A stretch of DNA of 64,000 nucleotides from an uncultured bacterium. GTDB lineage: Bacteria; Patescibacteriota; Minisyncoccia; Phycocordibacterales; JAACPR01. Under the pieces are notes generated by a model. The model had not been told where the DNA came from and did not search any database. It worked only from the letters and a program-made list of their open reading frames with translations. The stretch is from positions 1,567-65,566 of the forward strand of contig CALLZK010000024.1 in assembly GCA_937858275.1 (NCBI GenBank), read 5' to 3'. Positions 32,871-57,268 of this stretch are shown piece after piece (positions within the stretch are counted from its first letter, which is position 1; the number at the start of each line of letters is the position of its first letter). The position numbers and the translations under genes were made by a program.

Positions 32871-34280
32871 TCAATTTTTATTATTAGTTATTTGTAAATT
32901 AATATTTTTTATATCGACCGGAAAAGTTTTTTTCCAAAAAGGAGAAATTGTAGCAGATCCTTTTGTTATTGCTGGAAAATTTGATAGGACCAAACCAAGA
33001 TCATTTTTTGTTTTTCCTGCCATTGTTTTTTTAAAATTTTCTATATCAATTTGCCAGACGAAAGTCATATTTTGATTTACATCTATTGTTTCGCTACTAA
33101 GCAAATTGGTTGAGTCTTCTAATTTTTTTATTGTAAAAATTACTGAATCTATATCTTGTATCAAAACATCTTGACCTACACGATAATCAATAATTGTATT
33201 TTTTGCAATTTCATTTGAAAGTGCTATTTTATTAAATACTTTTATACTTAATTTTCCATCAACACTTATATCTACACTTCTACCGTCTGCAGAATTTGTC
33301 TGTCTTACATTGTTAAAAACAAAAGAATTATCGTCAAATATTGCTATAAATTCTTTTGATATTTGATTAGTTATCTCCAAAATAAGTGCCGATTTTAGTT
33401 CTGAAATTAATTGTTGCGATGATCTGCTTAGAACTTCTGAATCTACAATTTTCCTAATTCCGTTGTACCCTTCGGTCATTGGGGTTTTTGATTTTGCATA
33501 GAAAGAATTGAATTGTTCTTGTCCTTTGAAACCGGGGATTGTAAAGTCTACCAAGTTTATGTTGTACTTTTCTCCGTTTTCGTCCGCAAAAACAACCGCA
33601 TCTATGCTACCTGGTATTTTGTTTCCATCAACTATTCTATAACCAGGAACAGTAATTGATTCTTGTATTCTATAAATTAAACCGTTTGGAGATTCAAATC
33701 TTGTATTGCGAATAAGTGTTTGTGGTCTGTCCGAATATTCATTAAAAATAGTGATGGTTCCACTTGCTTTTGATTGAACAAATTCCTCTTTTTCTGCTGG
33801 TATATTTTTTGTTAATTCTTTTGAGATTTCTATTAATCGATAACCTAAAACATTTTGATTTGAATTTTTTGTGATATCAGCGATTGGAATACTTTTGTTT
33901 ATTGAAGCCTCAACTGTTTTTTGTTCTATACTGATTACTGCATTTTCTAAAAAAGAAATTATAAAAAAAACTATGGCCAAAATAGCTACAATAGATGAGG
34001 TTATTAAAAAAGTTTTTATTTTTTTGCCTTTCTTGTAATTTTTGCCATTTAACTCATTTAGATATTTTTCATCTAATGGAATGTCTTTTTTTACAAAACC
34101 AGATGGTGGTGTAATTGGGGTTTTTGGTTTTAATTCCTGAACAATATGATCATTTTTTAATGATTTTGTCGGTTTTTTTTCTAAAATAACCGGTCTTCTT
34201 CTTGGCGGAACCGGAATATCCCTAATTGATCTTTTTTGTTTTGGTGGTATTACATCTTGTAAAAAATTATTATCATTCAT
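32871..34280 (-). CDS. bitopic membrane protein: Pro/Lys-rich cytoplasmic N-terminus, one TM, about 370-aa extracytoplasmic domain; function unknown
   Basis: 'IPVPPRRRPVILEKKP...', TM 'FLITSSIVAILAIVFFIISFL'. No recognised motif. Confidence 0.5.
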   Translation of the reverse strand: MNDNNFLQDVIPPKQKRSIRDIPVPPRRRPVILEKKPTKSLKNDHIVQELKPKTPITPPSGFVKKDIPLDEKYLNELNGKNYKKGKKIKTFLITSSIVAILAIVFFIISFLENAVISIEQKTVEASINKSIPIADITKNSNQNVLGYRLIEISKELTKNIPAEKEEFVQSKASGTITIFNEYSDRPQTLIRNTRFESPNGLIYRIQESITVPGYRIVDGNKIPGSIDAVVFADENGEKYNINLVDFTIPGFKGQEQFNSFYAKSKTPMTEGYNGIRKIVDSEVLSRSSQQLISELKSALILEITNQISKEFIAIFDDNSFVFNNVRQTNSADGRSVDISVDGKLSIKVFNKIALSNEIAKNTIIDYRVGQDVLIQDIDSVIFTIKKLEDSTNLLSSETIDVNQNMTFVWQIDIENFKKTMAGKTKNDLGLVLSNFPAITKGSATISPFWKKTFPVDIKNINLQITNNKN

Positions 34281-34315: not shown

Positions 34316-35488
34316 CTAATTATCTAAAAAATTTGAAAAATTTGCAATAATCGAAATCAGAGGATCTTTGTTTATATCATCTTGATATAAACAAAGATCA
34401 GGTATGTTTTTTTGATTTATTATATGAATTATTGGTTCAGAATTTATTTTTAAGGTTTTAAAGTAAAAATCTTTTGATTTTAAAATTGATTGGGTAAATT
34501 CACTTATTTGTAAATCGGTTGTTAAAAAGATTATGCCGGGAGTTATTTCATTAATCCACTTTTTTTCCATAAATTTTGAAATTTCTGATATATATTGATC
34601 TTTTAAACTATTTAAAAAATTAATTTTTTCTGAAAATGCTTCTTGGTTCATGTTTTTATCATAAAACAATTCAATTTCTGAGAATATTTGTTTTTGTTCG
34701 ATTTTGTATTTTTTGATCAATTCTCTAATAAAGAAATTATTACCTTTTGGAAAGGTTACCACACTTTTTAGTACAGAATTTTTGTATAAAGATAAATCTG
34801 TTGTTTCGCCACCAATATCAATCAAAACAAAACTGTCAGTTGAAGGAAATGTATTTTTTATTACAGATAAAATAACAAAAGGATGTGAATTTAGAGATAT
34901 TTTTTTTGGTAAAAAAGCATCTTCTATTTTTTTGATAATTAAATCAGATAGTTTTTTTGAAATATAACCTTCATAAAATGATATTTTTGCTTTTTCAAAA
35001 TATTTTCCAAAAGGATTTGAAATTTCGTAATCATTTAGACTAACTGAAAGTATTTTGTTTTCGATTAAGCATTCTTTTGATGTTATTTCTGTATTGTTTT
35101 TATCGAGTAGGTTTTTGAGAGTTTTTTCGGTAAATTTTGTTTTTTTGTCTTGTGTAAAATTAAAATTTTTTAACTTTAATTTGTACCATGGTGAGGAAAA
35201 ACAACAAAAAACTTCGGAAACTGAATTTTCGCTTTGATATTTTGAATTGTTTTTTATTCCTATTTCTTTGATATCTTTTAAAACCAAATCAAAAGATTTT
35301 ATTAATTTTTTGATAAAAACATTTTGATCAAATGACATTTCTGTTTCTACATAATGTCTTTTTGTATATATTACTTTTGGTCTATCTTCTTTTGATTCAA
35401 TAACAATAGCACCACCAACACTAGCACTTCGAAAATCTAATACAATTTTTAATTTGGGAGATATTTTTTTATTACGAGAAATAAACAT
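34316..35488 (-). CDS. actin-like ATPase (FtsA/PilM/MreB superfamily)
   Basis: Phosphate-1 'KIVLDFRSASVGGAIV' and phosphate-2 'VLIDIGGETTDLSLY'. Confidence 0.6.
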   Translation of the reverse strand: MFISRNKKISPKLKIVLDFRSASVGGAIVIESKEDRPKVIYTKRHYVETEMSFDQNVFIKKLIKSFDLVLKDIKEIGIKNNSKYQSENSVSEVFCCFSSPWYKLKLKNFNFTQDKKTKFTEKTLKNLLDKNNTEITSKECLIENKILSVSLNDYEISNPFGKYFEKAKISFYEGYISKKLSDLIIKKIEDAFLPKKISLNSHPFVILSVIKNTFPSTDSFVLIDIGGETTDLSLYKNSVLKSVVTFPKGNNFFIRELIKKYKIEQKQIFSEIELFYDKNMNQEAFSEKINFLNSLKDQYISEISKFMEKKWINEITPGIIFLTTDLQISEFTQSILKSKDFYFKTLKINSEPIIHIINQKNIPDLCLYQDDINKDPLISIIANFSNFLDN

Positions 35489-35551
35489 TTGTTTTTATTA
35501 TAAAACTTAAAAAGATTTTAGGCAAAGTTTTATTGTTTATATCTTTTATTT

Positions 35552-37342
35552 TTATTGCAAAATCGCCTTGATTCTTCTTGTGCCAGATGAAACAGCTTCT
35601 TCTTTTATTATTTTGAATTGCCCCAATTCTTTTGTGTTTGAAACATGCGGACCACCGCAAAATTCTTTTGAGTAAGCAGTTTGTAGATCGTTGCCAATAT
35701 AATATATACTAACTTCATCTGGGTATTTTTGATCAAAAAAATGAAGAGCTCCCGTTTTTACGGCCAAATCTTTCGGTAATGTTATTGATTTAATTGGTAG
35801 GGCTTCTTTTATTTTATTATTTACAATTTCTTCTATTTTATTTTTTTGCTCATCTGATATTTTTTGATTATAAGAAAAATCAAATCTCAGTCTTTCAGAA
35901 TTTATATTACTACCTCTTTGACTAACATCAAGACCGCAGACATCTCTTAGTGCTTGATGAAGTAAGTGTGTTGCAGTGTGATATTTTTTTTCTATTTCAG
36001 TGTCACCAGACAAACCACCTTTAAATTTTTTATCGGAATTTGAACGGGATAATTTTTGATGTTCGGAAAAAAATTCTTTTGCTTTTTGCAAATCAAATGA
36101 TAAATTATTATTTTTTAATATTTCAGCGGTTATTTCCATTGGAAAACCATAATTTTGATATAAATCGAATATTACTTTTGGTTCGATTTGCTCTTTTGTT
36201 TCAATTATTTTGTTAAGTTTTTTGATACCATCTTTTAGAGTTTTTCTGAATTTTGATATTTCTTGATTTATTATTTCTTTTGTATTTGAAATGTTCAAAT
36301 TTGGATATATTTGGTTGTAATATTTGATTATAGAGTCAATAATCAAATCATATTTTTCAAAAGATATTTTGTCAGAATGAATAATCATTCTTCTAATTAA
36401 TTTTCTCAGTACATATCCCCGGTCGCTATTTGTTGGTATAACACCATCAGAAATCAAAAAACAAGATGCTTTGATGTGGTCGGCTATTATTTTTGCTGAA
36501 TAATCCAAATAATTTGATGAATTTTCTTTTATTATTTTTATAATTTCAGAAAAGGAGTCTATTTCGTAAACATTTTTTTTGTTATTTAAAATCACCGACA
36601 ATCTTTCAAGACCAGCTCCGGTATCTACAGCAAATTTTGATAATTTTTTTATTATTTTTCCATTATCTTTTTCGTATTGCATGAAAACATCATTCCAAAT
36701 TTCTACAATTTTTTGTTCTTCATCAGCCAAATCAAATTGCTCTTTTGTTAAGTCTCCCAATGTTCCGGTTACATCATAAAACATTTCTGTGCAGGGGCCT
36801 GTGGGACCTGTCCATGTATCTGTTTTGGAATTTTTTACTGCTGGCCACCAATTAGAATCGGCTCCTTTAAAATAAATTCTATTTTCTGGTAGAAAATTTT
36901 TCCAAATTTCAAATGATTCGGTGTCTTTTGGAGAATTTTCATCTCCAGCAAAAACTGTGACATACAATCTATTTTTATCCAAACCAAGCCCTTCTTTGGA
37001 ATCAGTCAAAAATTCAAAACTCCACTTTATTGCTTCTTTTTTAAAATAATCACCAATAGACCAATTACCTAACATTTCAAAAAAAGTTAAATGTGTATTA
37101 TCGCCGACCTCTTCAATATCTACTGTTCTAATGCATTTTTGAGCACTGGCCAATTTTGTGTTTGGGGCAATTTCTGTTCCCAAGATAAAAGGAATTATTG
37201 GTTGCACACCAGCATTAACAAATAATGTTGAATTTATTTGATTATTTTGATCTTTGGTTATAACTGATGCTGAATCAATAATTGAATGATTTCTTTGTTT
37301 AAAAAAATTTAAAAATTTTTCTCTTATCTCTCTTGAGTCCAT
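35552..37342 (-). CDS. alaS: alanyl-tRNA synthetase, short form (596 aa)
   Basis: Catalytic core 'TLFVNAGVQP', 'GNWSIGDYF', and an editing-domain 'HTATHLLHQAL', but it ends about 270 aa earlier than canonical AlaRS. Confidence 0.85.
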   Translation of the reverse strand: MDSREIREKFLNFFKQRNHSIIDSASVITKDQNNQINSTLFVNAGVQPIIPFILGTEIAPNTKLASAQKCIRTVDIEEVGDNTHLTFFEMLGNWSIGDYFKKEAIKWSFEFLTDSKEGLGLDKNRLYVTVFAGDENSPKDTESFEIWKNFLPENRIYFKGADSNWWPAVKNSKTDTWTGPTGPCTEMFYDVTGTLGDLTKEQFDLADEEQKIVEIWNDVFMQYEKDNGKIIKKLSKFAVDTGAGLERLSVILNNKKNVYEIDSFSEIIKIIKENSSNYLDYSAKIIADHIKASCFLISDGVIPTNSDRGYVLRKLIRRMIIHSDKISFEKYDLIIDSIIKYYNQIYPNLNISNTKEIINQEISKFRKTLKDGIKKLNKIIETKEQIEPKVIFDLYQNYGFPMEITAEILKNNNLSFDLQKAKEFFSEHQKLSRSNSDKKFKGGLSGDTEIEKKYHTATHLLHQALRDVCGLDVSQRGSNINSERLRFDFSYNQKISDEQKNKIEEIVNNKIKEALPIKSITLPKDLAVKTGALHFFDQKYPDEVSIYYIGNDLQTAYSKEFCGGPHVSNTKELGQFKIIKEEAVSSGTRRIKAILQ

Positions 37343-37362
37343 ATTTTTTATATATTACTTTA

Positions 37363-38064
37363 CTACTTAAAATTGAGCAAATCTAAATCTTTTTCAGGAT
37401 ATATTTCGGTTGATTCTATTAATTCGTACAAATTTCCCTTTTCTGGATAATCCCAACTTATCAAATCCAAATTGGCACATTTGGCATATTTTTTGGCATT
37501 TTCGGTAAATTTTGTATTCGTAATAAGTAAACCATTTGTCATTTTTCTTTTTTTACCCTCAATTAAAAATTCTTGTTCGGACAAATCATCGAATCTAGCT
37601 TTTATGTATAAGGTAACTTTTGTATCTGTTTTGGTGTTTATTTCATTATGATATTTTGCCTCAATTAAAAGTAAATCATCAATATCATATGCCAAAACAT
37701 CTATTTCATGCTCAATACATTTGCCCACAAGCATAATTCCTGTTTGGGTTTTGTACCCTTTGGCATTCATTATTTTTGCTATATATTTTTCAAAAGGAAA
37801 ACCAGTTGGACCAAGTTCTGATAGTTTTCTTCGAATTGAGTATCTAAGGGCGGTTTTTTTTGATTTTTGATTTAAAATTTCATAAGCCCTTTTATATATT
37901 TTTGAAGTTTCAATGCCGTTTTTTAATTCAGATTCGATTTTATCTGAAATTTCATTTGCCAAAATAGAAGATGCTCCAGATTTTTTTAGTGAATTTCTAA
38001 GTTTTTCTCTATTAAATAATTCCAGTTGGCCGTTAGATTTTAGTATTTTTATATTGTCAGACAT
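37363..38064 (-). CDS. ATP-cone domain fused to Mrr-like (PD-(D/E)xK) restriction-endonuclease catalytic domain
   Basis: N-terminal 'IKILKSNGQLELFNREKL..' is ATP-cone. C-terminal 'EHEIDVLAYD...IEAKYH...LLITNTKFTENAKKYAK..LDLISWD' fits the Mrr_cat pattern. Confidence 0.6.
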   Translation of the reverse strand: MSDNIKILKSNGQLELFNREKLRNSLKKSGASSILANEISDKIESELKNGIETSKIYKRAYEILNQKSKKTALRYSIRRKLSELGPTGFPFEKYIAKIMNAKGYKTQTGIMLVGKCIEHEIDVLAYDIDDLLLIEAKYHNEINTKTDTKVTLYIKARFDDLSEQEFLIEGKKRKMTNGLLITNTKFTENAKKYAKCANLDLISWDYPEKGNLYELIESTEIYPEKDLDLLNFK

Positions 38065-38065
38065 T

Positions 38066-38539
38066 TTAACCTTTTATGTATATATCCACCTCGTTTATAT
38101 TTTCATCTTCACCAATTTCAAAAACATTTAATCTGACAATTTGATTGTTAATTGTGGCTATTATGTTTTCATCCAAATCACCATCAAAAGAAATTTTGAA
38201 ATTTCTTGAATCTATAACCTGAATACAAACATTATCAGAATCTGGTTGTGAATAAGTAATAGCTATTTCTGTCAGATTATCTTTTTTTATAACTTCAACA
38301 TTGTGCAAGTAGCAGGGATTTGGCACCTCAAAAGAACCGGCTACTGTGTACTTGCCGTTTTTGTATTGCTGTTTTATGTTTAATGTTTCAGACGGGGTTT
38401 GAATCAAATCTTCTATTGCCTTTTGTCTGTCATTTGAATATTGTTCTGTTTTATTATTTTTATAATAGACATAGATAGAGGATGCTAAAAAGAATAATAC
38501 AATTGCTGCTAAAATTGAAAATGATGTTTTTTTGTTCAT
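38066..38539 (-). CDS. secreted or anchored small protein, function unknown
   Basis: Signal anchor 'FSILAAIVLFFLASSIYVYY', and 2 Cys. Confidence 0.45.
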   Translation of the reverse strand: MNKKTSFSILAAIVLFFLASSIYVYYKNNKTEQYSNDRQKAIEDLIQTPSETLNIKQQYKNGKYTVAGSFEVPNPCYLHNVEVIKKDNLTEIAITYSQPDSDNVCIQVIDSRNFKISFDGDLDENIIATINNQIVRLNVFEIGEDENINEVDIYIKG

Positions 38540-38557
38540 AATGTTTAATTATATCAA

Positions 38558-39616
38558 CTAATTTATTATACCGCCACCAAGACAAATATCCCCATCATAA
38601 AAAACCGCTGACTGACCCGAGGTCGGCACTTCTTCATTTGCATTATTTTCAAGTTCTATATTATTTTCAAAATCTCCACCAATTATTTTAAATAATTGTG
38701 TTTTTTGTCTATATCGGAAAACAGCTTCTATATTTTTTAATTTTGACAATGGTTTATTTATAAAATTTAAATTTGTAATCAAAATTCTTTCTTTACTAGC
38801 ATCATTTTTTTCTTCGGCAACAATCAAAATATTTTTTGAAATATCCTTATCAATAACATAAAACGGTTTGTCTGTTGTTTTTTTATGAAAAATATCAAAA
38901 TTATGTCTTTCACCAATGGTATAAAATATTGCTCCTTCGTGTTTTCCAATTACATTACCTTTTTTATCGACAACATTTCCGGGATTGATTTCTATATAAT
39001 TTTTTAAAAAATTTTTCATATCAACATGCCCAATGAAACAAAGTCCCTGACTGTCTTTTTTATCCGCAGTAAATAAGTTCGCTTTTCCGGCAATTTTTCT
39101 GACATCTTTTTTGTTTAAATGACCAATTGGAAAAAGAACTCTTTTTAATATATCCTGATTCAAATTCCATAAAAAATAAGTTTGATCTTTTTGTTGATCG
39201 ATTGATTTTTTTAAATAAAATTTTTCATCAGAATTTTTATAATTTTGAGCATAGTGACCAGTTGCAATAAAATCAGCATTATTTTGAATTGCAAAATTTA
39301 AAAAAGATTTGAATTTTATTTCTTTGTTACACATTACATCCGGATTTGGAGTTCTGCCGTTTTTATATTCTTCAATCATATAATCAAAAACACCCAATTT
39401 GTATTCTTTTTCTAAATCACAAAGTAAAAATGGTATTTTCAATCTGGCACAAACTTTCATTGCATCTCTCATTTCTGCCCTCCAATTACATGCAACAAAT
39501 TCTGGATACCAAACCTTAATAAAGACACCAACAACATTATATCCCTGTTTTTTTAACAAATAAGCCGAAACGGAGCTATCAACTCCTCCAGATAATCCGA
39601 CAAATACTTTTTTCAT
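38558..39616 (-). CDS. mnmA: tRNA-specific 2-thiouridylase MnmA
   Basis: PP-loop 'VFVGLSGGVDSSVSAYLL'. Catalytic Cys in 'QGLCFIG'. Confidence 0.9.
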   Translation of the reverse strand: MKKVFVGLSGGVDSSVSAYLLKKQGYNVVGVFIKVWYPEFVACNWRAEMRDAMKVCARLKIPFLLCDLEKEYKLGVFDYMIEEYKNGRTPNPDVMCNKEIKFKSFLNFAIQNNADFIATGHYAQNYKNSDEKFYLKKSIDQQKDQTYFLWNLNQDILKRVLFPIGHLNKKDVRKIAGKANLFTADKKDSQGLCFIGHVDMKNFLKNYIEINPGNVVDKKGNVIGKHEGAIFYTIGERHNFDIFHKKTTDKPFYVIDKDISKNILIVAEEKNDASKERILITNLNFINKPLSKLKNIEAVFRYRQKTQLFKIIGGDFENNIELENNANEEVPTSGQSAVFYDGDICLGGGIIN

Positions 39617-39643
39617 AATTTAATTTATAGCAGAATTTTATTT

Positions 39644-40639
39644 TTAATCCAAATACAAAAATCTATTTCTTCTATGCCCATCCAAATCGGTCGCAAAGTA
39701 CATTTTACCATCTCTACCAGTTAAAAAAAATAAATTTTTTGTTTTTCTTGGATTTGCAGCAGCCAAGATAGATTTTATTCCGGGATTACCAATAGGGGTT
39801 GGTATTAAGCCGGTATTTCTATAGGTGTTGTAAGGATGATTATCTTCTAAATCACTCATTGTCAAATCAAATGTGCTTTTTCCTATGTAATAAACAAAAG
39901 GAGCATCAACCTGTAAGGGCATTCCTATTTCTATTCTGTGCCATAAAATATCTGATACCTCTTGAAATGTTTCTGCGGTAGCTTCTTTTTCTATAATAGA
40001 AGCCATTATTATAATTTCTTCCAAGCTGTATTTTGAATTATTTATAATATTTTGATTTTCCCCAATCTTTCTTTCAAAATTTTTATTAAAAACATCCAAA
40101 ATATTTTCTGCAGTAGTATTTATTTTAAAATCGTAAGTGTCTGGAAATAAATAACCTTCTTTATCTTTTGCCAAATTCAAAAAGTTTTGATAATCAAAAT
40201 CCGGTATTTTATTTTTTATCTCTTGAGCAATTTGATTGACGGTAATACCTTCAAAAAAAGTAATTCTAACTACCGGCATTCTGTATTCACCAGTATCAAG
40301 TCTTTGAACAATTGACAAAAGATTTTCTGGACGATTAAAAATATAATCACCGCTAATGATTTTTTTATTTCTAATAGCAATAATTATATTAAAAAAGTTT
40401 TCTGATCTAATTAAATTATTTTCTTTTAAAATTGATGCGGTCTTTCTTGTAGATTGACCCCTTTCTATGTTTATTTTAATTTCTTGATTTTCAAAAGTTA
40501 GATTTGTTGGTGGTTTTATAAAATAAAAAAACCAAAGAGTTATCGAGATTGAAATAGCTAAAAAAAACAAAATAATATTATTGATTTTTTTTAAATAAGA
40601 ATTTGATATTTTACTTGTGAAATTATTGTTCTCTGACAT
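39644..40639 (-). CDS. mltG: endolytic murein transglycosylase MltG (YceG-like)
   Basis: N-terminal TM, 'MASIIEKEA', and the YceG pattern. Confidence 0.8.
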   Translation of the reverse strand: MSENNNFTSKISNSYLKKINNIILFFLAISISITLWFFYFIKPPTNLTFENQEIKINIERGQSTRKTASILKENNLIRSENFFNIIIAIRNKKIISGDYIFNRPENLLSIVQRLDTGEYRMPVVRITFFEGITVNQIAQEIKNKIPDFDYQNFLNLAKDKEGYLFPDTYDFKINTTAENILDVFNKNFERKIGENQNIINNSKYSLEEIIIMASIIEKEATAETFQEVSDILWHRIEIGMPLQVDAPFVYYIGKSTFDLTMSDLEDNHPYNTYRNTGLIPTPIGNPGIKSILAAANPRKTKNLFFLTGRDGKMYFATDLDGHRRNRFLYLD

Positions 40640-40656
40640 TTAAAATTTTATTTATA

Positions 40657-41880
40657 TTAAATAGGTAAATCTGCTGGTGCCTCGCTTTTTTTGGAGTGAA
40701 CTCTTTGTAGTGATGGTGTATGAGACACACTTCCTGGAAAATGATAAATTGTCGCTAATTCCTCACTATTTAAAATAAAATGTTTTCTTTTTCTGCCAAA
40801 AAATGGTCTGAAAAAATAACCCCTTTCTCTATAAGCTTCAAAAATTTCTTGTTTGATCGCTTTTAATTTGTTTCCTGTAGGATCTTCCCACCAATAATCA
40901 AAACCTGTTTTGATTCCGGGCTTGAAACCATTTAATTCACTTGAGCTATATTGTTTAAATCCTCCAGCCAAACCGGCAATATTTACAGGATCAAAAACAT
41001 CTTTTTCTGCAACATACATACCTCGAATACCAACATCAAATGGTAATTTTGAAATGCTTCTTTCTATTGCATTTATTTTATCGATTTGACCTTTTGTGGC
41101 TAAAGGAACCTTTGTTGTACCTTCCCCAGCTTCAACCTCCACCATTGAATCTTCTCGTATCTTTTTAATTAGATCTTTTGCATCATCTTTCCACTTATCT
41201 GTTAAACCAAACCATTTTGTTGGATCCTTATCTTCTTTCTTGTGTGATCTAACTATTATTTGAAGCCACACGAATTCTCCCTGCTTTATTGAGCCCATAA
41301 ATTCCAACATTGGAGTTATTGGATCAGTTTTTTCTTCTTCTTCTGATGCTTTATCCAAACCATAATCGACATAAGTTTTTATTGGAACAGGATCTGGTGC
41401 CGTTAATTCAAATTCTGTAGCCCAAATAGAATAATCGGAATCATTATAATCAACATTTTTTGTATAATCTTCAACTTCAAAAACTTCAATTCCTGGATAT
41501 TGAGCATAAATTTGTGATTGAAGATATCCAACCATATTTTTTCTGGTCCAAACATAAAATCCAACATCTCCACCGTTTGAGGCGATTTCTAATGAAAACC
41601 AAGGTCTGACTTTTCCTTTCCAGTATTTGTCTATCGGTGTTGCTTCTCCCACTGTTTGAGAAAGTGCATTCATAAATAACTCCATAGACAGAGGTGTTTT
41701 GAATATGTCCATTGGTGGAACAATTCTAAGTATTTTGTATTCCTGATCTGCTAAAAATCTATTTCTGGCATAATTTATCCACATATTGACTAATATAACA
41801 GTCAAAATAATTGGTAAAAATATAGGCAAAATCAAAATCAAAAATTCTATTAATCTTTGTATTATATCAAAACTGTTCAT
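40657..41880 (-). CDS. membrane-anchored 407-aa protein, function unknown
   Basis: N-terminal TM 'LIEFLILILPIFLPIILTVILV' and a large acidic domain. No family assigned. Confidence 0.45.
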   Translation of the reverse strand: MNSFDIIQRLIEFLILILPIFLPIILTVILVNMWINYARNRFLADQEYKILRIVPPMDIFKTPLSMELFMNALSQTVGEATPIDKYWKGKVRPWFSLEIASNGGDVGFYVWTRKNMVGYLQSQIYAQYPGIEVFEVEDYTKNVDYNDSDYSIWATEFELTAPDPVPIKTYVDYGLDKASEEEEKTDPITPMLEFMGSIKQGEFVWLQIIVRSHKKEDKDPTKWFGLTDKWKDDAKDLIKKIREDSMVEVEAGEGTTKVPLATKGQIDKINAIERSISKLPFDVGIRGMYVAEKDVFDPVNIAGLAGGFKQYSSSELNGFKPGIKTGFDYWWEDPTGNKLKAIKQEIFEAYRERGYFFRPFFGRKRKHFILNSEELATIYHFPGSVSHTPSLQRVHSKKSEAPADLPI

Positions 41881-41932: not shown

Positions 41933-42964
41933 TTAGACTACTAGTGTGTATTTTCCGCTTTTGTCTTTTTTGAAATGAGATTGATTTTGTAGATTTACCA
42001 AAACCGTATTATCTTTTACATATCTTTCTTTTAAAACCTTTTCAATTATTTCTTCTTTTGTTAGTGGACCGTGTTTTTGTAAAATATTTTTTATAACATC
42101 TCGAACAACACCCGGAGAATATCCCCACTCAGTTAATGCATAAAGTCCTCTGCCAACCAAAACAAATCGCTCATCTTTAATTAATTCATTATGGCATGTT
42201 GCGACATGTGCTTTTCTATTAAAAACTTTCGATATTTGATCGGCTAATTCTTTGAAGTGAATTGGTGAGCCGTGTTTTCTAATTACCAAAAAAGCATAAT
42301 CTCTAATTCCTTTAACATTTATATTTGGTGATTCTATTTTTCCCCATTCTCCAAGAGGATTTTGGGCAATTTTTTTTGAAATTCTCAACCATCTTTTTAC
42401 AACCTCTTCTCTTTTATATTTTTCAGATATTTCCTGGACATGATTTAGAAAAGATTTTATCAATTCTGATTCGGGTATTATGTCGTCATCTTTTAAATTG
42501 GAGTAGATTTTTTTTATGGATTCTTCTATTGATGAAGCCAAGTTTGTATTTACAGACCATCTATGATTAAAATGATCGTCTTCTTTTAATTTTACAAAAT
42601 GATCACCTATAACTAATAGAAAATGTATATGATTTCGAATGGTTTCATTTAATGATAAATGATTTAATAAATCCTCTTCGGAAACTACACCACCAAGATC
42701 ATCTATTACACCTTTTAATTCTTCAAAAACAGGAATAGTTTCGTTATATGCATCAGATTTTCTAATAGAAGAAAGAGAGTGCTCTTCTATTTGTCTAACT
42801 CGTTCACGAGTTATGTTGTATTCTTTTCCGATTGATTCCAAGGTTAATCTATCGGTATTTTTTGAAAGTCCATATCTTTTTAACAAAACATCTTTTGATC
42901 TCTGTGATAATCCAGAAATTAATTTTTTTGTCACTTCTTTTGGTTGAAAACTAAGTTTTATCAT
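41933..42964 (-). CDS. DNA-binding protein with N-terminal sigma-70 region-4-like HTH and C-terminal HARE-HTH-like domain
   Basis: 'LTLESIGKEYNITRERVRQIEEHSL' (sigma region 4) and 'HFKELADQI...FVLVGRGLYALTEWGYSP' (HARE-HTH-like). Confidence 0.55.
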   Translation of the reverse strand: MIKLSFQPKEVTKKLISGLSQRSKDVLLKRYGLSKNTDRLTLESIGKEYNITRERVRQIEEHSLSSIRKSDAYNETIPVFEELKGVIDDLGGVVSEEDLLNHLSLNETIRNHIHFLLVIGDHFVKLKEDDHFNHRWSVNTNLASSIEESIKKIYSNLKDDDIIPESELIKSFLNHVQEISEKYKREEVVKRWLRISKKIAQNPLGEWGKIESPNINVKGIRDYAFLVIRKHGSPIHFKELADQISKVFNRKAHVATCHNELIKDERFVLVGRGLYALTEWGYSPGVVRDVIKNILQKHGPLTKEEIIEKVLKERYVKDNTVLVNLQNQSHFKKDKSGKYTLVV

Positions 42965-48433: not shown

Positions 48434-51400
48434 TTATCTTCTAATATTAACTGTTGTCTTGAAATATTGTCTTGGGCCATTCTGATCTCTATTTGGTCCA
48501 ACATATTGTAACACTAATTCTATTTGAATTAATCCGGATTGTCCTTCTGCTGTTAAGTTTTTAAAATTAACCGCCAAAACATTTACAGTATTTGAAGTTA
48601 ATCTAACTTCCTGATCACTTCCTATTTTTTTATACAAAACACCATTTTTAACATAAAAAATAGTTTGAATATCATCTTTTTTCAGGGTAAGAGTTGAAAC
48701 ACCAGATTGACCGATAATAGTAGAGCCGAAAATTGATGCGGAATTTTGATTTGAACCAGAAAATTTTATTTCTATATCATTATTTGCAATTTCTATACTG
48801 CTTGTGCTATTTATAATAAATTTTATGGATTGTCCGGCAAACATTATACTTTGTTGATCTCCTGTATTTATTGAATAAAAAGGATATAAACAAAAACGAT
48901 TGTTACTACCAAATTCTACACCAGGGTTGCTTGTTATTTTTATAATATTGCTATTGTCTTCAAAAGAAGAGCTGTTTCCAAAATCAAAAATATCTTGTGT
49001 CGGCATTTCTATTGGACAAGAATTTGAGCCGGACATTTGATAATGTCTCAATAAAACATTTGAAATATATTCTTTTGATAATGATCCTGTGTATTCCAAA
49101 GATATTGAATTTAGGGTTGTGGTAGCAGTTTCTAATAATAAACTAAATGCTCCACCAAGTGGTTGATTTGTTATTACATCGCTTTCTAATTGTATGTTTC
49201 TTATTTGTGAGCCGTGAGCCGAAATCAATATTTGTTGTGGTGCCAAAGATGTTAAAGTCCAATTAGTATTATTTGTGGAATCTGTACTATTTGAAGCATT
49301 AACTGCGATATCGCTTATGTTATTAGAATCTTTCACATCTACATATTGAATTTCTCTATTTCCTTTTGGATCTATATTCCACTGAGTGCCACCAACTGTC
49401 GATCTTAATTTTAAAAGAGAATTTTCTTGACCTTTTATTGTCAAATTATTATTTATGGTTGTAGTTTGTTCTGCAACAAAAAATGCTGTATTACTATCAT
49501 TTCCCTCAATAGTTAAATTACCGTAAGTCCAGTCTGATTTTATGTTAAAATTAACATCCTGATTGCCGGTATATTTTATCGTACTATCAAATTCAATTGT
49601 TGGGTTATGAGAAAGTGTTTCATTTCCTGTCAAAATAAGAGTTGCATTATTTTGAATTGTAAAAGAATTGTTTGTAGTTAAATTATAACCATTTAGATTA
49701 AAAGTGGATCCGCTTGTAATGATTATATTATTAATAACCGCATTAGAATTTAATTTTAACCCCTCTTCGTTTGTATTTGAAATTGTGACTGTGCCAGTAG
49801 TAAGTGCGGTTGAATTTGCATGATTCAAATTTTGAACATTACTACCAGAAAAAATATAATTTGTATTACTTGCTATAGAAATAGTATATGTAATATTACC
49901 CTTTAGATTTATTGTTCCAGAATTTGGTACAGCATTAATTATATTCAAATTTCCATTAACAATTAAAGTGTCGTCTGTCGCAATGGTAAGATAATTATTA
50001 GTGGCATTTTTATTTATAGAAACATTATTAAATTCCAAATTTGAATTTACATCAATGGTTGTAAAACTTCCACCAAAAATTACTGTGCCCCCACTATGAT
50101 TAAATGTTCCACCAGTAGTATTGATGAAGTTTCCATTAAATTGAGTTGTTCCAGTTGAAGCATTGAATATTCCTGTTCCAGAAAGATTAAATGCTCCGGT
50201 GATAGTGACTGTTCCAGAACCACCGTTGAAAGTGCCGCCTGATTGGGTGAAAGTGCCGGTAACATTTAAATTGTTTGAGTTAATAATAAAACTATTAAAA
50301 GATTGAAGATTCAGACTACTTATTGTGGTGTTAGCACTACTTGATATTGAAACATGAGGATTATTGATTATTAGATTTGGTAGACCGCCGCCGTTTAAAT
50401 TGACAGTTTTTGGGTTGGTTGTTCCATCATTAATTATATTAAGATTTGTACTACCAGCCCAAGAATTTTCCCCGGACGATAGATTACCCTTCAAATTTAC
50501 CGTACCAGCACTAAAACCACCCTGATTAATAATCAGATTTCCGTTTATAATAAGTGTGTCTCCTGTTGATATTGTAACTAACTGATTGCTAGCACCCTTG
50601 TTTATTGTAATATTATTAAATTCCAAATTTGAATTTACATCAATGGTTGTAAAACTTCCACCAAAAATTACTGTGCCCCCACTATGATTAAATGTTCCAC
50701 CAGTAGTATTGATGAAGTTTCCATTAAATTGAGTTGTTCCAGTTGAAGCATTGAATATTCCTGTTCCAGAAAGATTAAATGCTCCGGTGATAGTGACTGT
50801 TCCAGAACCACCGTTGAAAGTGCCGCCTGATTGGGTGAAAGTGCCGGTAGTAGTTAAATTGCCGGAACCCACATCAAAAGACCCATTAAAAGCCTGAAGA
50901 TTTAAACTTTGAAATCTATTATTTCCCGAATAAACAATAGAAATGTTTGAATTATTTATTATAATATTTGATAAATTTGCATTATTAATAGTAATAGTTT
51001 TTGAATTTACCGTTCCGTCAGAAATTAAAGATATATTTGCAGTTCCACTAGCATCAACAGAAGAAAAATTTGCATTACCAAAGATATTTATATTTGCACC
51101 AGATATTGTACCGCTCAAATGAGTAAATGTATTTAAAACATTAAGTGTGTCACCGGTAGCAATAGTTAGAACAGTGGCGGGTGTTCGGTTTACTGTTAAA
51201 TTATTAAATGTTAAAGATGAATTTACATCTATTGTTCTATGGGCCCCAGCCAAAACAACGGTTCCATTATTGTGATTGAATGTTCCACCGGTAGTATTGG
51301 TAAAATTATTATTAAATTGAATATTGCCGACAGAATTTGGAGCATTAAATATTCCAGTACCAGATAAAGTAAATACTCCAGTAATTAAAATATTTCCAGA

Positions 51401-51799
51401 ACCACCGTTGAAAGTGCCACCTGATTGGGTAAAATGTGTTGAGGTGGTTAAAGAGTGTGTATTAACATTCAACGTTCCAGCAGACATGTTTATTTGCTGA
51501 ACAGACCAATTAGCAGTCAAATTGGCAGTGTTTGTACAACTAGAAGTAAAATAAGCAATATCTAATGTGTTTGGCACACTAGCACCACCACCAACTCCGC
51601 AGGAATTTGCAGTAGTAGACCAATTGGCAGAATCCGTTACACTTCCACCCTCTGTACCAACCCAATATCTATCTGCGGCAAAAACACTATTAGTAGAAAT
51701 AAAAAAACTAAAAAACACAGTTATTAATACGAAAAAAAATAAAACAAAATTTATTTTTATTTTTTTATCTTTTTTTATGTTTTTAATAAATTCTTGCAT
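48434..51799 (-). CDS. large secreted beta-helix-type repeat protein (putative pilus-associated adhesin)
   Basis: Signal peptide, then 'DRYWVGTEGGSVTDSANWSTT..PNTLDIAYFT', then three about 196-aa repeats 'TQSGGTFNGGSG.VTITGAFNLSGTGIFNA...'. Lies between the minor pilin genes. Confidence 0.7.
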   Translation of the reverse strand: MQEFIKNIKKDKKIKINFVLFFFVLITVFFSFFISTNSVFAADRYWVGTEGGSVTDSANWSTTANSCGVGGGASVPNTLDIAYFTSSCTNTANLTANWSVQQINMSAGTLNVNTHSLTTSTHFTQSGGTFNGGSGNILITGVFTLSGTGIFNAPNSVGNIQFNNNFTNTTGGTFNHNNGTVVLAGAHRTIDVNSSLTFNNLTVNRTPATVLTIATGDTLNVLNTFTHLSGTISGANINIFGNANFSSVDASGTANISLISDGTVNSKTITINNANLSNIIINNSNISIVYSGNNRFQSLNLQAFNGSFDVGSGNLTTTGTFTQSGGTFNGGSGTVTITGAFNLSGTGIFNASTGTTQFNGNFINTTGGTFNHSGGTVIFGGSFTTIDVNSNLEFNNITINKGASNQLVTISTGDTLIINGNLIINQGGFSAGTVNLKGNLSSGENSWAGSTNLNIINDGTTNPKTVNLNGGGLPNLIINNPHVSISSSANTTISSLNLQSFNSFIINSNNLNVTGTFTQSGGTFNGGSGTVTITGAFNLSGTGIFNASTGTTQFNGNFINTTGGTFNHSGGTVIFGGSFTTIDVNSNLEFNNVSINKNATNNYLTIATDDTLIVNGNLNIINAVPNSGTINLKGNITYTISIASNTNYIFSGSNVQNLNHANSTALTTGTVTISNTNEEGLKLNSNAVINNIIITSGSTFNLNGYNLTTNNSFTIQNNATLILTGNETLSHNPTIEFDSTIKYTGNQDVNFNIKSDWTYGNLTIEGNDSNTAFFVAEQTTTINNNLTIKGQENSLLKLRSTVGGTQWNIDPKGNREIQYVDVKDSNNISDIAVNASNSTDSTNNTNWTLTSLAPQQILISAHGSQIRNIQLESDVITNQPLGGAFSLLLETATTTLNSISLEYTGSLSKEYISNVLLRHYQMSGSNSCPIEMPTQDIFDFGNSSSFEDNSNIIKITSNPGVEFGSNNRFCLYPFYSINTGDQQSIMFAGQSIKFIINSTSSIEIANNDIEIKFSGSNQNSASIFGSTIIGQSGVSTLTLKKDDIQTIFYVKNGVLYKKIGSDQEVRLTSNTVNVLAVNFKNLTAEGQSGLIQIELVLQYVGPNRDQNGPRQYFKTTVNIRR
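50024..50849. repeat. intragenic tandem duplication: 238 bp 100% identical at 50024-50261 and 50612-50849 (period 588 bp = 196 codons), with a third diverged copy about 51230-51440
   Basis: Direct comparison of the two stretches. In-frame repeat inside the giant gene. Confidence 0.85.
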
Positions 51800-57191: not shown

Positions 57192-57264
57192 GGGCCGGTA
57201 GCTCACCTGGTAGAGCGCCTCACTTGCACTGAGGAGGTAGCGGGTTCAAGTCCTGTCCGGTCCA
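57192..57264 (+). tRNA. tRNA-Ala (anticodon UGC)
   Basis: Cloverleaf: acceptor GGGCCGG/CCGGTCC with G3:U70, D-arm GCTC..GAGC, anticodon stem CCTCA/TGAGG with loop CTTGCAC, T-loop TTCAAGT. 73 nt. CCA is not encoded. Confidence 0.9.
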
Positions 57265-57268
57265 CAAA

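Follow-up and report, generated by a model that had tools for sequence, protein, structure and literature searches.

The locus and its product

We describe here a gene of an uncultured bacterium of the Patescibacteriota whose product joins an ATP-cone to a nuclease domain of the PD-(D/E)xK type. The gene lies on contig CALLZK010000024.1 (assembly GCA_937858275.1), of which a stretch of 64,000 nucleotides was analysed; this whole stretch is called the window below, and all coordinates are counted from its first letter. A first-pass annotation, made by reading the letters, had drawn attention to positions 37363-38539, a span that comprises two co-directional open reading frames (ORFs) on the minus strand, the nuclease gene and a small ORF upstream of it. 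The nuclease gene and the parts of its product are as follows.

37363..38064, minus strand: ATP-cone plus Mrr_cat/AF1548-type nuclease gene, short form, 233 amino acids from an ATG start (ORF call and Pfam)
37822..38052, minus strand: ATP-cone domain, residues 5-81 (PF03477, 34.1 bits against a cut-off of 25.8)
37789..37812, minus strand: domain junction GPTGFPFE, residues 85-92 (translation; invariant in alignments A1 and A3)
37456..37803, minus strand: PD-(D/E)xK nuclease domain, Mrr_cat/AF1548 type, residues 88-203 (PF04471, 34.5 bits against a cut-off of 21)
37645..37710, minus strand: catalytic core HEIDVLAYDIDDLLLIEAKYHN, with H119, E120, D122, E135, K137, H139 and N140 (translation)

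In searches with the PF03477 and PF04471 hidden Markov models (HMMs), judged against the Pfam gathering cut-offs, both domains pass, and the fusion of an ATP-cone to an Mrr-type nuclease that the first-pass annotation had proposed is thus borne out. Pfam gives no match to a Zn-ribbon, Mrr_N or SRA domain anywhere in the protein; its N-terminal domain is the ATP-cone. An AlphaFold2 model built with 73 homologues shows one confident two-domain body (pLDDT 89.6, pTM 0.83).

The ATP-cone and the domain junction

The profile match, the fold of a beta-hairpin with four helices and the contact residues agree that the protein belongs to the ATP-cone family, and binding of ATP or dATP is predicted accordingly from its sequence. 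In Foldseek comparisons with the Protein Data Bank (PDB), the cone of the model superposes on the cones of Escherichia coli NrdR with a root-mean-square deviation (rmsd) of 1.8-2.0 Å over 80-86 residues, and the cones of ribonucleotide reductases (RNRs) are also among its structural matches. In a profile alignment to residues 50-127 of E. coli NrdR (EcoNrdR), K9, E15 and K21 fall on K53, E59 and K65, the residues that touch bound ATP and dATP in EcoNrdR and whose mutation impairs nucleotide binding (PMC12176259). K9 is invariant in all of our alignments; the other two contact residues, E15 and K21, show no variation in A1 or A3, and at least 90% of the sequences in A2 also keep K21.

Across the family, conservation is highest at the junction of the two domains, GPTGFPFE, which was picked twice by the search tool as the family signature and which ends in E92, the glutamate of the active-site helix. 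An invariant and very short linker of this kind suggests tight mechanical coupling of the sensor to the catalytic domain.

The nuclease domain

The second domain places the protein in the Mrr_cat/PD-(D/E)xK family with an intact catalytic set, from which we predict metal-dependent cleavage of phosphodiester bonds. Its closest relative of solved structure is AF1548 of Archaeoglobus fulgidus (PDB 1Y88), a structural-genomics protein described as a predicted endonuclease (PMC1821046). The single sequence finds 1Y88 with phmmer at E 5e-22, the family profile finds AF1548 at E 3e-49 over both the nuclease and the C-terminal domain, and Foldseek matches the model to 1Y88 at E 6.5e-12 with an rmsd of 2.5 Å; the nuclease domains of Can2/Card1, Cdn1, MspJI and AspBHI come next, at E of about 1e-4.

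The motifs quoted in the first-pass annotation, HEIDVLAYD...IEAKYHN and TNTKFTENAKKYAK, are present in the translation, and the catalytic triad D/E/K, whose absence on alignment would have told against a nuclease, is there: D122, E135 and K137 align with D38, E51 and K53 of AF1548, the residues predicted to be catalytic in that protein (PMC1821046). H119, E120, D122, E135, K137, H139 and N140 are invariant in alignments A1, A2, A3 and A5, and E92, H119, E120, D122, E135 and K137 are so in four alignments, down to 33% identity and across phyla. Two cysteines of the domain, C116 (37717-37719) and C196 (37477-37479), are, like H139, invariant family-wide and have counterparts in the aligned sequence of AF1548; they could serve as ligands of a structural metal or be joined by a disulfide.

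Most relatives are about 280 amino acids long and carry a further 45-50 or so residues at the C-terminus that match AF1548-like_C (PF22357), which we take to be a helix-hairpin-helix-like domain, of a type that is usually DNA-binding. The window protein ends at residue 233 and has no AF1548-like_C, as is the case in a small clade at 57-76% identity; since alaS starts 20 nucleotides downstream, there is no room for a remnant. Insertion of alaS as the cause of the loss was considered and rejected, as in long forms, too, alaS comes after the gene (loci L004-L007).

Family size, spread and naming

The family is large, running to thousands of protein clusters, and its architecture is widespread. 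A search with the window protein returned 1517 proteins at E ≤ 0.001, and an exhaustive search of the representatives of 50%-identity clusters returned 1036 at the same threshold and 367 at E ≤ 1e-30, almost all of the matched representatives covering both domains; with a homologue from Criblamydia as the query, 6551 proteins were found. The fusion is not a chance one, given that the same architecture recurs in the 1517 close relatives and in the 367 clusters. The junction signature occurs in at least 598 GTDB species genomes and at least 583 metagenome stretches. Hosts include many lineages of Patescibacteria (Paceibacteria and relatives, Gracilibacteria, Peribacteria), Bacteroidota (Pontibacter, Chitinophaga, Psychroserpens, Cyclobacteriaceae, Sediminibacterium, Lentimicrobium) and Chlamydiota (Criblamydia and metagenome-assembled genomes (MAGs) of Chlamydiia).

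What are these proteins called? Automatic public names include 'restriction endonuclease', 'ATP cone domain-containing protein' and, for several members annotated by JGI pipelines, 'Holliday junction resolvase-like'; a protein identical to ours (100%) is deposited from a Candidatus Paceibacterota MAG as 'restriction endonuclease [Candidatus Paceibacterota bacterium]'. The 'restriction endonuclease' label is probably misleading. No NCBIfam family covers the window protein or its Criblamydia homologue, and full-text literature searches returned no paper on an ATP-cone/nuclease fusion and no published function, AF1548 appearing only as a predicted endonuclease (PMC1821046); one apparent match, a preprint on the metalloproteome of Pseudomonas aeruginosa, proved irrelevant. 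In other words, the architecture is already catalogued and the exact protein already deposited, but the combination of sensor and effector has never been characterised.

Genomic neighbourhoods in Patescibacteria

The immediate surroundings in the window are these.

38066..38539, minus strand: small upstream ORF of 157 amino acids with an N-terminal hydrophobic anchor or signal (ORF call)
38558..39616, minus strand: mnmA (tRNA 2-thiouridylase), conserved upstream neighbour (Pfam)
35552..37342, minus strand: alaS, downstream neighbour; the gene in this downstream place varies among relatives (Pfam)

That the gene is embedded among housekeeping genes, as first noted, holds: around it lie alaS, mnmA, mltG/YceG, leuS, ychF, type IV pilus genes, uvrA/uvrC, dnaK/dnaJ, gltX, murG, ftsW and mraY. 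Nearly every surrounding gene lies on one and the same strand, and the G+C content of the window is about 30%. The stop codon of the 157-amino-acid ORF lies 1 nucleotide ahead of the ATG of the nuclease gene, which is consistent with the proposed co-transcription of the two. A scan of 35000-41000 for promoters and terminators was uninformative: 39 promoter-like sites were counted where 36.2 were expected, and the minus strand gave no terminator. The small protein has no Pfam, PADLOC or significant NCBIfam match, and we rejected it as a conserved partner, its homologues being confined to 11 of the 84 analysed loci, those of the closest relatives of the window gene; it is a lineage-specific insert.

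These 84 loci comprise 83 that were fetched and the window region, with ORFs called and clustered in all of them. The order upstream is conserved in Patescibacteria: leuS, a protein with sigma70_r4 and HARE-HTH domains, DUF8128, mltG, mnmA and then the nuclease gene. In 52 of 63 Patescibacteria loci, mnmA is the next gene upstream, either adjoining the nuclease gene or separated from it by one small ORF. Downstream, the gene content varies (by Pfam: alaS, Cas4-like PDDEXK_1, UDG family 4, YfbR-like HD 5'-deoxynucleotidase, MGMT, MgtC, PCMT, ExoX-like exonuclease), alaS being nearby in 36 of the 84 loci. A gene of repair or nucleotide type, such as UDG family 4, PDDEXK_1, YfbR-like, MGMT or ExoX-like, stands within four genes in 37 of 64 Patescibacteria loci. 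On average, the nuclease is 47% and MnmA 49% identical to its counterpart in the window; the correlation between the two sets of identities (Pearson 0.49, Spearman 0.12) is a weak test of co-inheritance over saturated ranges, and only the similar mean conservation is used here. We conclude that the nuclease gene is a fixed core gene in Paceibacteria.

Linkage to nrd genes, which would point to a simple regulator, was considered and rejected: another cone-bearing ORF is nearby in 1 of 78 loci (784 amino acids; it may be a ribonucleotide reductase), and there is none elsewhere in the window.

MgtC-family genes come after the nuclease gene in 10 Patescibacteria loci. MgtC-family membrane proteins adjoin it both in Patescibacteria (L008, L017, L021, L031, L041, L043, L050, L051, L056) and outside the Candidate Phyla Radiation (CPR; L086, L091, L092, L099, L102, L112, L113, L116, L119), and MgtC is one of very few neighbours common to the two branches. 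Salmonella MgtC reduces cellular ATP via the F1Fo ATP synthase, an effect that may be relevant to an ATP-sensing protein.

Several other genes deserve mention in their own right. In the same synteny block, a protein of about 410 amino acids (40657-41880, minus strand), whose homologues carry DUF8128, has no match in the Pfam copy used; a 343-amino-acid protein (41933-42964, minus strand) combines sigma-70 region 4 with a HARE-HTH domain. Genes of the two types form a conserved Paceibacteria pair that always stands between leuS and mltG. Two conserved ORFs, one of about 390 amino acids (34316-35488, minus strand) with a faint FtsA-like actin-fold match and one of about 470 (32871-34280, minus strand) with a GlxA beta-barrel domain and a transmembrane segment, come after the nuclease gene or alaS in many Paceibacteria loci and before infA-rpsM-rpsK-rpsD-rpoA. 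At one Patescibacteria locus, L029, mltG and mnmA upstream of the nuclease gene are a single 629-amino-acid ORF, which made the two families merge in clustering and which could be a real fusion or an artefact of assembly or frameshift. Further away in the window, an ORF of 1121 amino acids (48434-51799, minus strand) with only a sub-threshold Ig-like Pfam match adjoins pilM, pilC/T2SSF and pilB/T2SSE and may encode a pilus-associated surface protein.

Neighbourhoods outside the CPR

Outside the CPR the gene keeps different company. Homologues were found on 2 of 72,556 plasmid records, one from Pontibacter actiniarum (Bacteroidota) and one from Criblamydia sequanensis (Chlamydiota), and both plasmids carry the same tight, same-strand cassette of ATP-cone protein, MBL-fold hydrolase, thymidine phosphorylase family protein and ribose-phosphate pyrophosphokinase. 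Stop and start codons overlap in the Criblamydia cassette, and in a Chlamydiia metagenome locus the nuclease gene overlaps the gene of a beta-CASP hydrolase. By NCBIfam, the hydrolase of the cassette is a beta-CASP enzyme akin to the aCPSF1 and Cas14 RNases, and an RMMBL domain is present in this partner; the phosphorylase is of the archaeal type of about 500 amino acids (NF003338, 679 bits), scoring 506 bits on the AMP-phosphorylase model, slightly below its cut-off of 535; and the kinase is a phosphoribosyl pyrophosphate (PRPP) synthetase, Prs. In a sample of 77 metagenome loci from the non-CPR branch, neighbours within five genes were counted, with the following result.

beta-CASP gene: 36 of 77 loci
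Usp genes, often in tandem arrays: 26 of 77 loci
P-type ATPases: 16 of 77 loci
archaeal-type thymidine/AMP-phosphorylase-family protein: 13 of 77 loci
Prs: 11 of 77 loci
2-hydroxyacid dehydrogenase: 10 of 77 loci
PFK: 9 of 77 loci
MgtC: 8 of 77 loci
AAA_28: 5 of 77 loci

The beta-CASP gene is the immediate downstream gene on the same strand in 22 of 72 non-CPR loci, and the neighbours seen at annotated non-CPR genome loci agree with the metagenome counts, as does a Pfam tally of 100 Bacteroidota neighbours. The recurrent cassette (ATP-cone nuclease, in places an 84-amino-acid ORF, aCPSF1-like beta-CASP hydrolase, archaeal-type phosphorylase, PRPP synthetase) is shared by Bacteroidota, Chlamydiota and many metagenome contigs; it is found at L084 (1972-6597) and L085 (8001-12608), and also at L092, L099, L102, L105, L114, L122 and L150, often with Usp, PFK, MgtC and 2-hydroxyacid dehydrogenase ahead of it. 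The set has the look of a module for stress and salvage that is so far undescribed.

Are there precedents for such a gene set? A trio of MBL, Prs and phosphorylase genes (bll3115-3117) is induced by microoxia in Bradyrhizobium diazoefficiens (PMC6515984), and the lxa locus of Burkholderia cenocepacia contains Usp, a cation ATPase, a kinase and acetate kinase, with no mention there of a homologue of the nuclease gene (PMC3721108). The wider gene content resembles the low-oxygen regulons lxa and DosR, a general resemblance only.

A candidate nucleotide-gated nuclease

The reading that we favour, and hold with moderate confidence, is that of an adenine-nucleotide-gated AF1548-type nuclease for nucleic-acid turnover, feeding nucleotide/ribose-phosphate salvage and/or DNA repair. 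The gene, chromosomal and passed on vertically, would encode an Mg2+-dependent endonuclease of the PD-(D/E)xK type and the AF1548 subfamily, with its activity switched by adenine nucleotides on the N-terminal ATP-cone. The idea of a nuclease gated by nucleotides goes back to the first-pass annotation; it is a reasonable one because the cone retains the residues that touch nucleotides in NrdR, and the gating itself remains a prediction. Our data establish the domain architecture, the intact catalytic and nucleotide-contact residues, the confident two-domain model, and the spread and neighbourhoods of the family; from these we infer that the protein binds nucleotides and is gated by them allosterically, and likewise what it cuts (DNA or RNA) and what it does in the cell.

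How might such a switch work? The cones of NrdR and of RNRs respond to nucleotides by changing conformation and oligomeric state (PMC9110341, PMC12176259), and by analogy the binding of ATP as against dATP, ADP or AMP may alter the conformation or the oligomeric state of the nuclease. The last helix of the cone passes almost directly into the helix that bears E92. A conformational change could travel through GPTGFPFE to this active-site glutamate, the passage from helix to helix offering a direct route by which the active site might be switched, or by which an oligomer competent to cut might be assembled or disassembled, such that cutting would occur only at a particular state of the nucleotide pool. 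For the family as a whole, the evidence best supports a part in nucleic-acid turnover, as housekeeping or in response to stress, with the products passing to nucleotide and ribose-phosphate salvage. DNA repair, the main alternative, suits the CPR neighbourhoods better.

A bolder version of this proposal, which we regard as tentative and rather unlikely, makes the family the nucleotide-sensing entry of a so far undescribed route that leads from nucleic acids to PRPP. The gated nuclease and the aCPSF1-like beta-CASP RNase would degrade RNA or DNA when the adenylate/dATP pool signals energy or oxygen limitation, and the mononucleotides released would go to the archaeal-type AMP/thymidine phosphorylase and PRPP synthetase. 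CPR bacteria largely lack de novo nucleotide synthesis, and in them the nuclease would have been turned into a core housekeeping gene for nucleotide scavenging. Were this so, an ATP-cone would for the first time be seen to control an enzyme that is not a ribonucleotide reductase.

A number of observations weigh against a gated nuclease that serves turnover and salvage. Nucleotide binding and nuclease activity are so far predictions for every member of the family. The canonical cone motif KRDG reads KSNG in the window protein (E. coli NrdR has KSND there), and R79 stands where EcoNrdR has the outer-site residue Y131. The short form, with no AF1548-like_C, may behave differently from the long form. 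The steady adjacency to mnmA may reflect only the frozen synteny of small genomes. Additionally, neither the window nor any of the 64 Patescibacteria loci contains beta-CASP, phosphorylase, Prs or Usp genes, so that the link to salvage is borrowed from what is seen in other phyla. Finally, the closest solved folds after AF1548 (Can2/Card1, Cdn1, MspJI, AspBHI) are those of defence nucleases, a point that favours a role in defence.

Alternative explanations

The alternative that survives best is a dedicated nuclease of DNA repair or recombination, structure-specific, resolvase-like or nicking, which dATP or ATP would license to cut only when deoxynucleoside triphosphates (dNTPs) are on hand for repair synthesis. 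We consider this doubtful but worth serious attention. Within four genes in the Patescibacteria loci are UDG family 4 (23), Cas4-like PDDEXK_1 (17), MGMT (5), ExoX-like exonuclease (2), RmuC (2) and a UvrD-like helicase (2); these repair genes, however, sit in the variable downstream region, and the non-CPR branch shows none of them, its partners being the RNase-type beta-CASP protein and salvage or stress genes. Most family members carry AF1548-like_C, described above as helix-hairpin-helix-like, but the window protein has no such C-terminal domain. The name 'Holliday junction resolvase-like' given to several members by JGI would also suit a repair nuclease, although such labels are automatic and no resolvase is among the top Foldseek matches.

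A nuclease of phage defence, abortive infection or a toxin system, as the first-pass annotation had suggested, is in our view improbable. The cone would sense a collapse or surge of dNTPs or ATP on infection, and the non-specific nuclease so released would kill the cell or degrade phage DNA. The pairing of a sensor domain with an Mrr-like nuclease does parallel ligand-gated defence nucleases, and there is a weak HMM match in PADLOC to the candidate system PDC-S02 (E 6e-9). This match is partial, however, covering profile positions 149-298 of 334, and the PADLOC matches of 31 family members scatter over PDC-S02 (11), CARF_PDDEXK (9) and ZorD (8), as generic similarity of Mrr-like nuclease domains alone would have them do. 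Ten neighbours in the window have no credible PADLOC match, two weak matches reflecting shared PP-loop and helix-turn-helix domains, and the top 25 Pfam families in a tally of 100 Bacteroidota neighbours include no restriction-modification or defence family; a survey for defence-island association thus yields none in the window or among these neighbours. With a partial match and no defence-island context, the window protein is not a member of any PADLOC system. Additionally, the gene occupies a fixed syntenic slot in a housekeeping block of Paceibacteria and diverges about as slowly as mnmA, and homologues are absent from 50,697 phage records and nearly absent from plasmids. In BFVD, Mrr-like nucleases and RNR cones are present separately, with no viral counterpart that has both domains. 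The suggestion of a defence role therefore finds no support in synteny, divergence, phage and plasmid records or neighbouring genes.

Could the enzyme act on RNA instead? A nuclease directed at tRNA or other RNA and tied to translation is suggested by the place of the gene, flanked by mnmA and alaS and with leuS a few genes beyond mnmA on the upstream side, and we think it very improbable. In its favour are mnmA directly upstream in 52 of 63 Patescibacteria loci, alaS nearby in 36 of those analysed, and the fact that in other phyla the gene is partnered by a beta-CASP nuclease of RNA type that carries an RMMBL domain. Adjacency to mnmA is nonetheless limited to Patescibacteria, where it falls within a long block of frozen synteny, no tRNA gene adjoins the nuclease gene (the sole tRNA in the window is at 57192-57265), and domains of the Mrr/AF1548 type are typically DNases.

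A non-catalytic, NrdR-like, nucleotide-sensing regulator of nrd or other genes, in which the nuclease fold only binds DNA, is in our opinion likewise very improbable. The cone is closest to NrdR cones in structure and sequence, and the DNA binding of NrdR is governed by nucleotide-dependent oligomerisation (PMC9110341, PMC12176259). Against it, none of the catalytic residues varies over hundreds of divergent sequences, as one would not expect of a domain that only binds, there is no Zn-ribbon, and a second cone-containing ORF is near in just one of 78 loci, with no other in the window.

Relation to known systems and significance

The window protein is not NrdR, a type IV restriction enzyme or a CARF nuclease, and a comparison with these systems and with AF1548 helps to place it. 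With AF1548 it shares a homologous nuclease domain and the same predicted catalytic D/E/K; the aligned part, however, begins just past the junction motif, nothing in AF1548 aligns to the cone, and the window protein has the cone and lacks AF1548-like_C. NrdR is the best structural and sequence match to the cone, with the contact Lys/Glu/Lys kept, and the logic of nucleotide-dependent switching of conformation or oligomer is probably shared. The output domain, by contrast, is a nuclease where NrdR has a Zn-ribbon that reads DNA, the gene is not linked to nrd genes, and the Tyr at EcoNrdR 131 is replaced. Can2/Card1 and Cdn1 are CARF-PD-(D/E)xK ancillary nucleases of type III CRISPR systems that are activated by cyclic oligoadenylates. 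Like them, the window protein has an N-terminal sensor for a ligand derived from adenine nucleotides and a PD-(D/E)xK nuclease of related fold; unlike them, it has an ATP-cone in place of CARF, a ligand that is presumably (d)ATP or ADP and not cA4 or cA3, and no CRISPR or defence context. Mrr, MspJI and AspBHI, enzymes of type IV modification-dependent restriction, belong to the same Pfam family, Mrr_cat, and have the same fold, whereas the window protein has no domain for reading modified DNA (Mrr_N or SRA-like), no restriction or defence neighbourhood, and a gene conserved as a core gene. Its likeness to PDC-S02 is a weak one, with only 11 of the 31 family members matching.

To our knowledge, what is understood of ATP-cones is confined to their regulation of ribonucleotide reductases and NrdR. 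A gated nuclease, if confirmed, would extend this well-studied allosteric switch to nucleic-acid degradation, and it would add a (d)ATP-gated member to the ligand-activated PD-(D/E)xK nucleases. The reduced genomes of Paceibacteria retain little that is dispensable, and this gene is fixed among them; in Bacteroidota and Chlamydiota, the copies sit in islands rich in Usp, P-type ATPase and salvage genes, which resemble low-oxygen and dormancy regulons. The function of these proteins could thus bear both on the nucleotide supply of small-genome symbionts and on the recycling of nucleic acids under energy stress.

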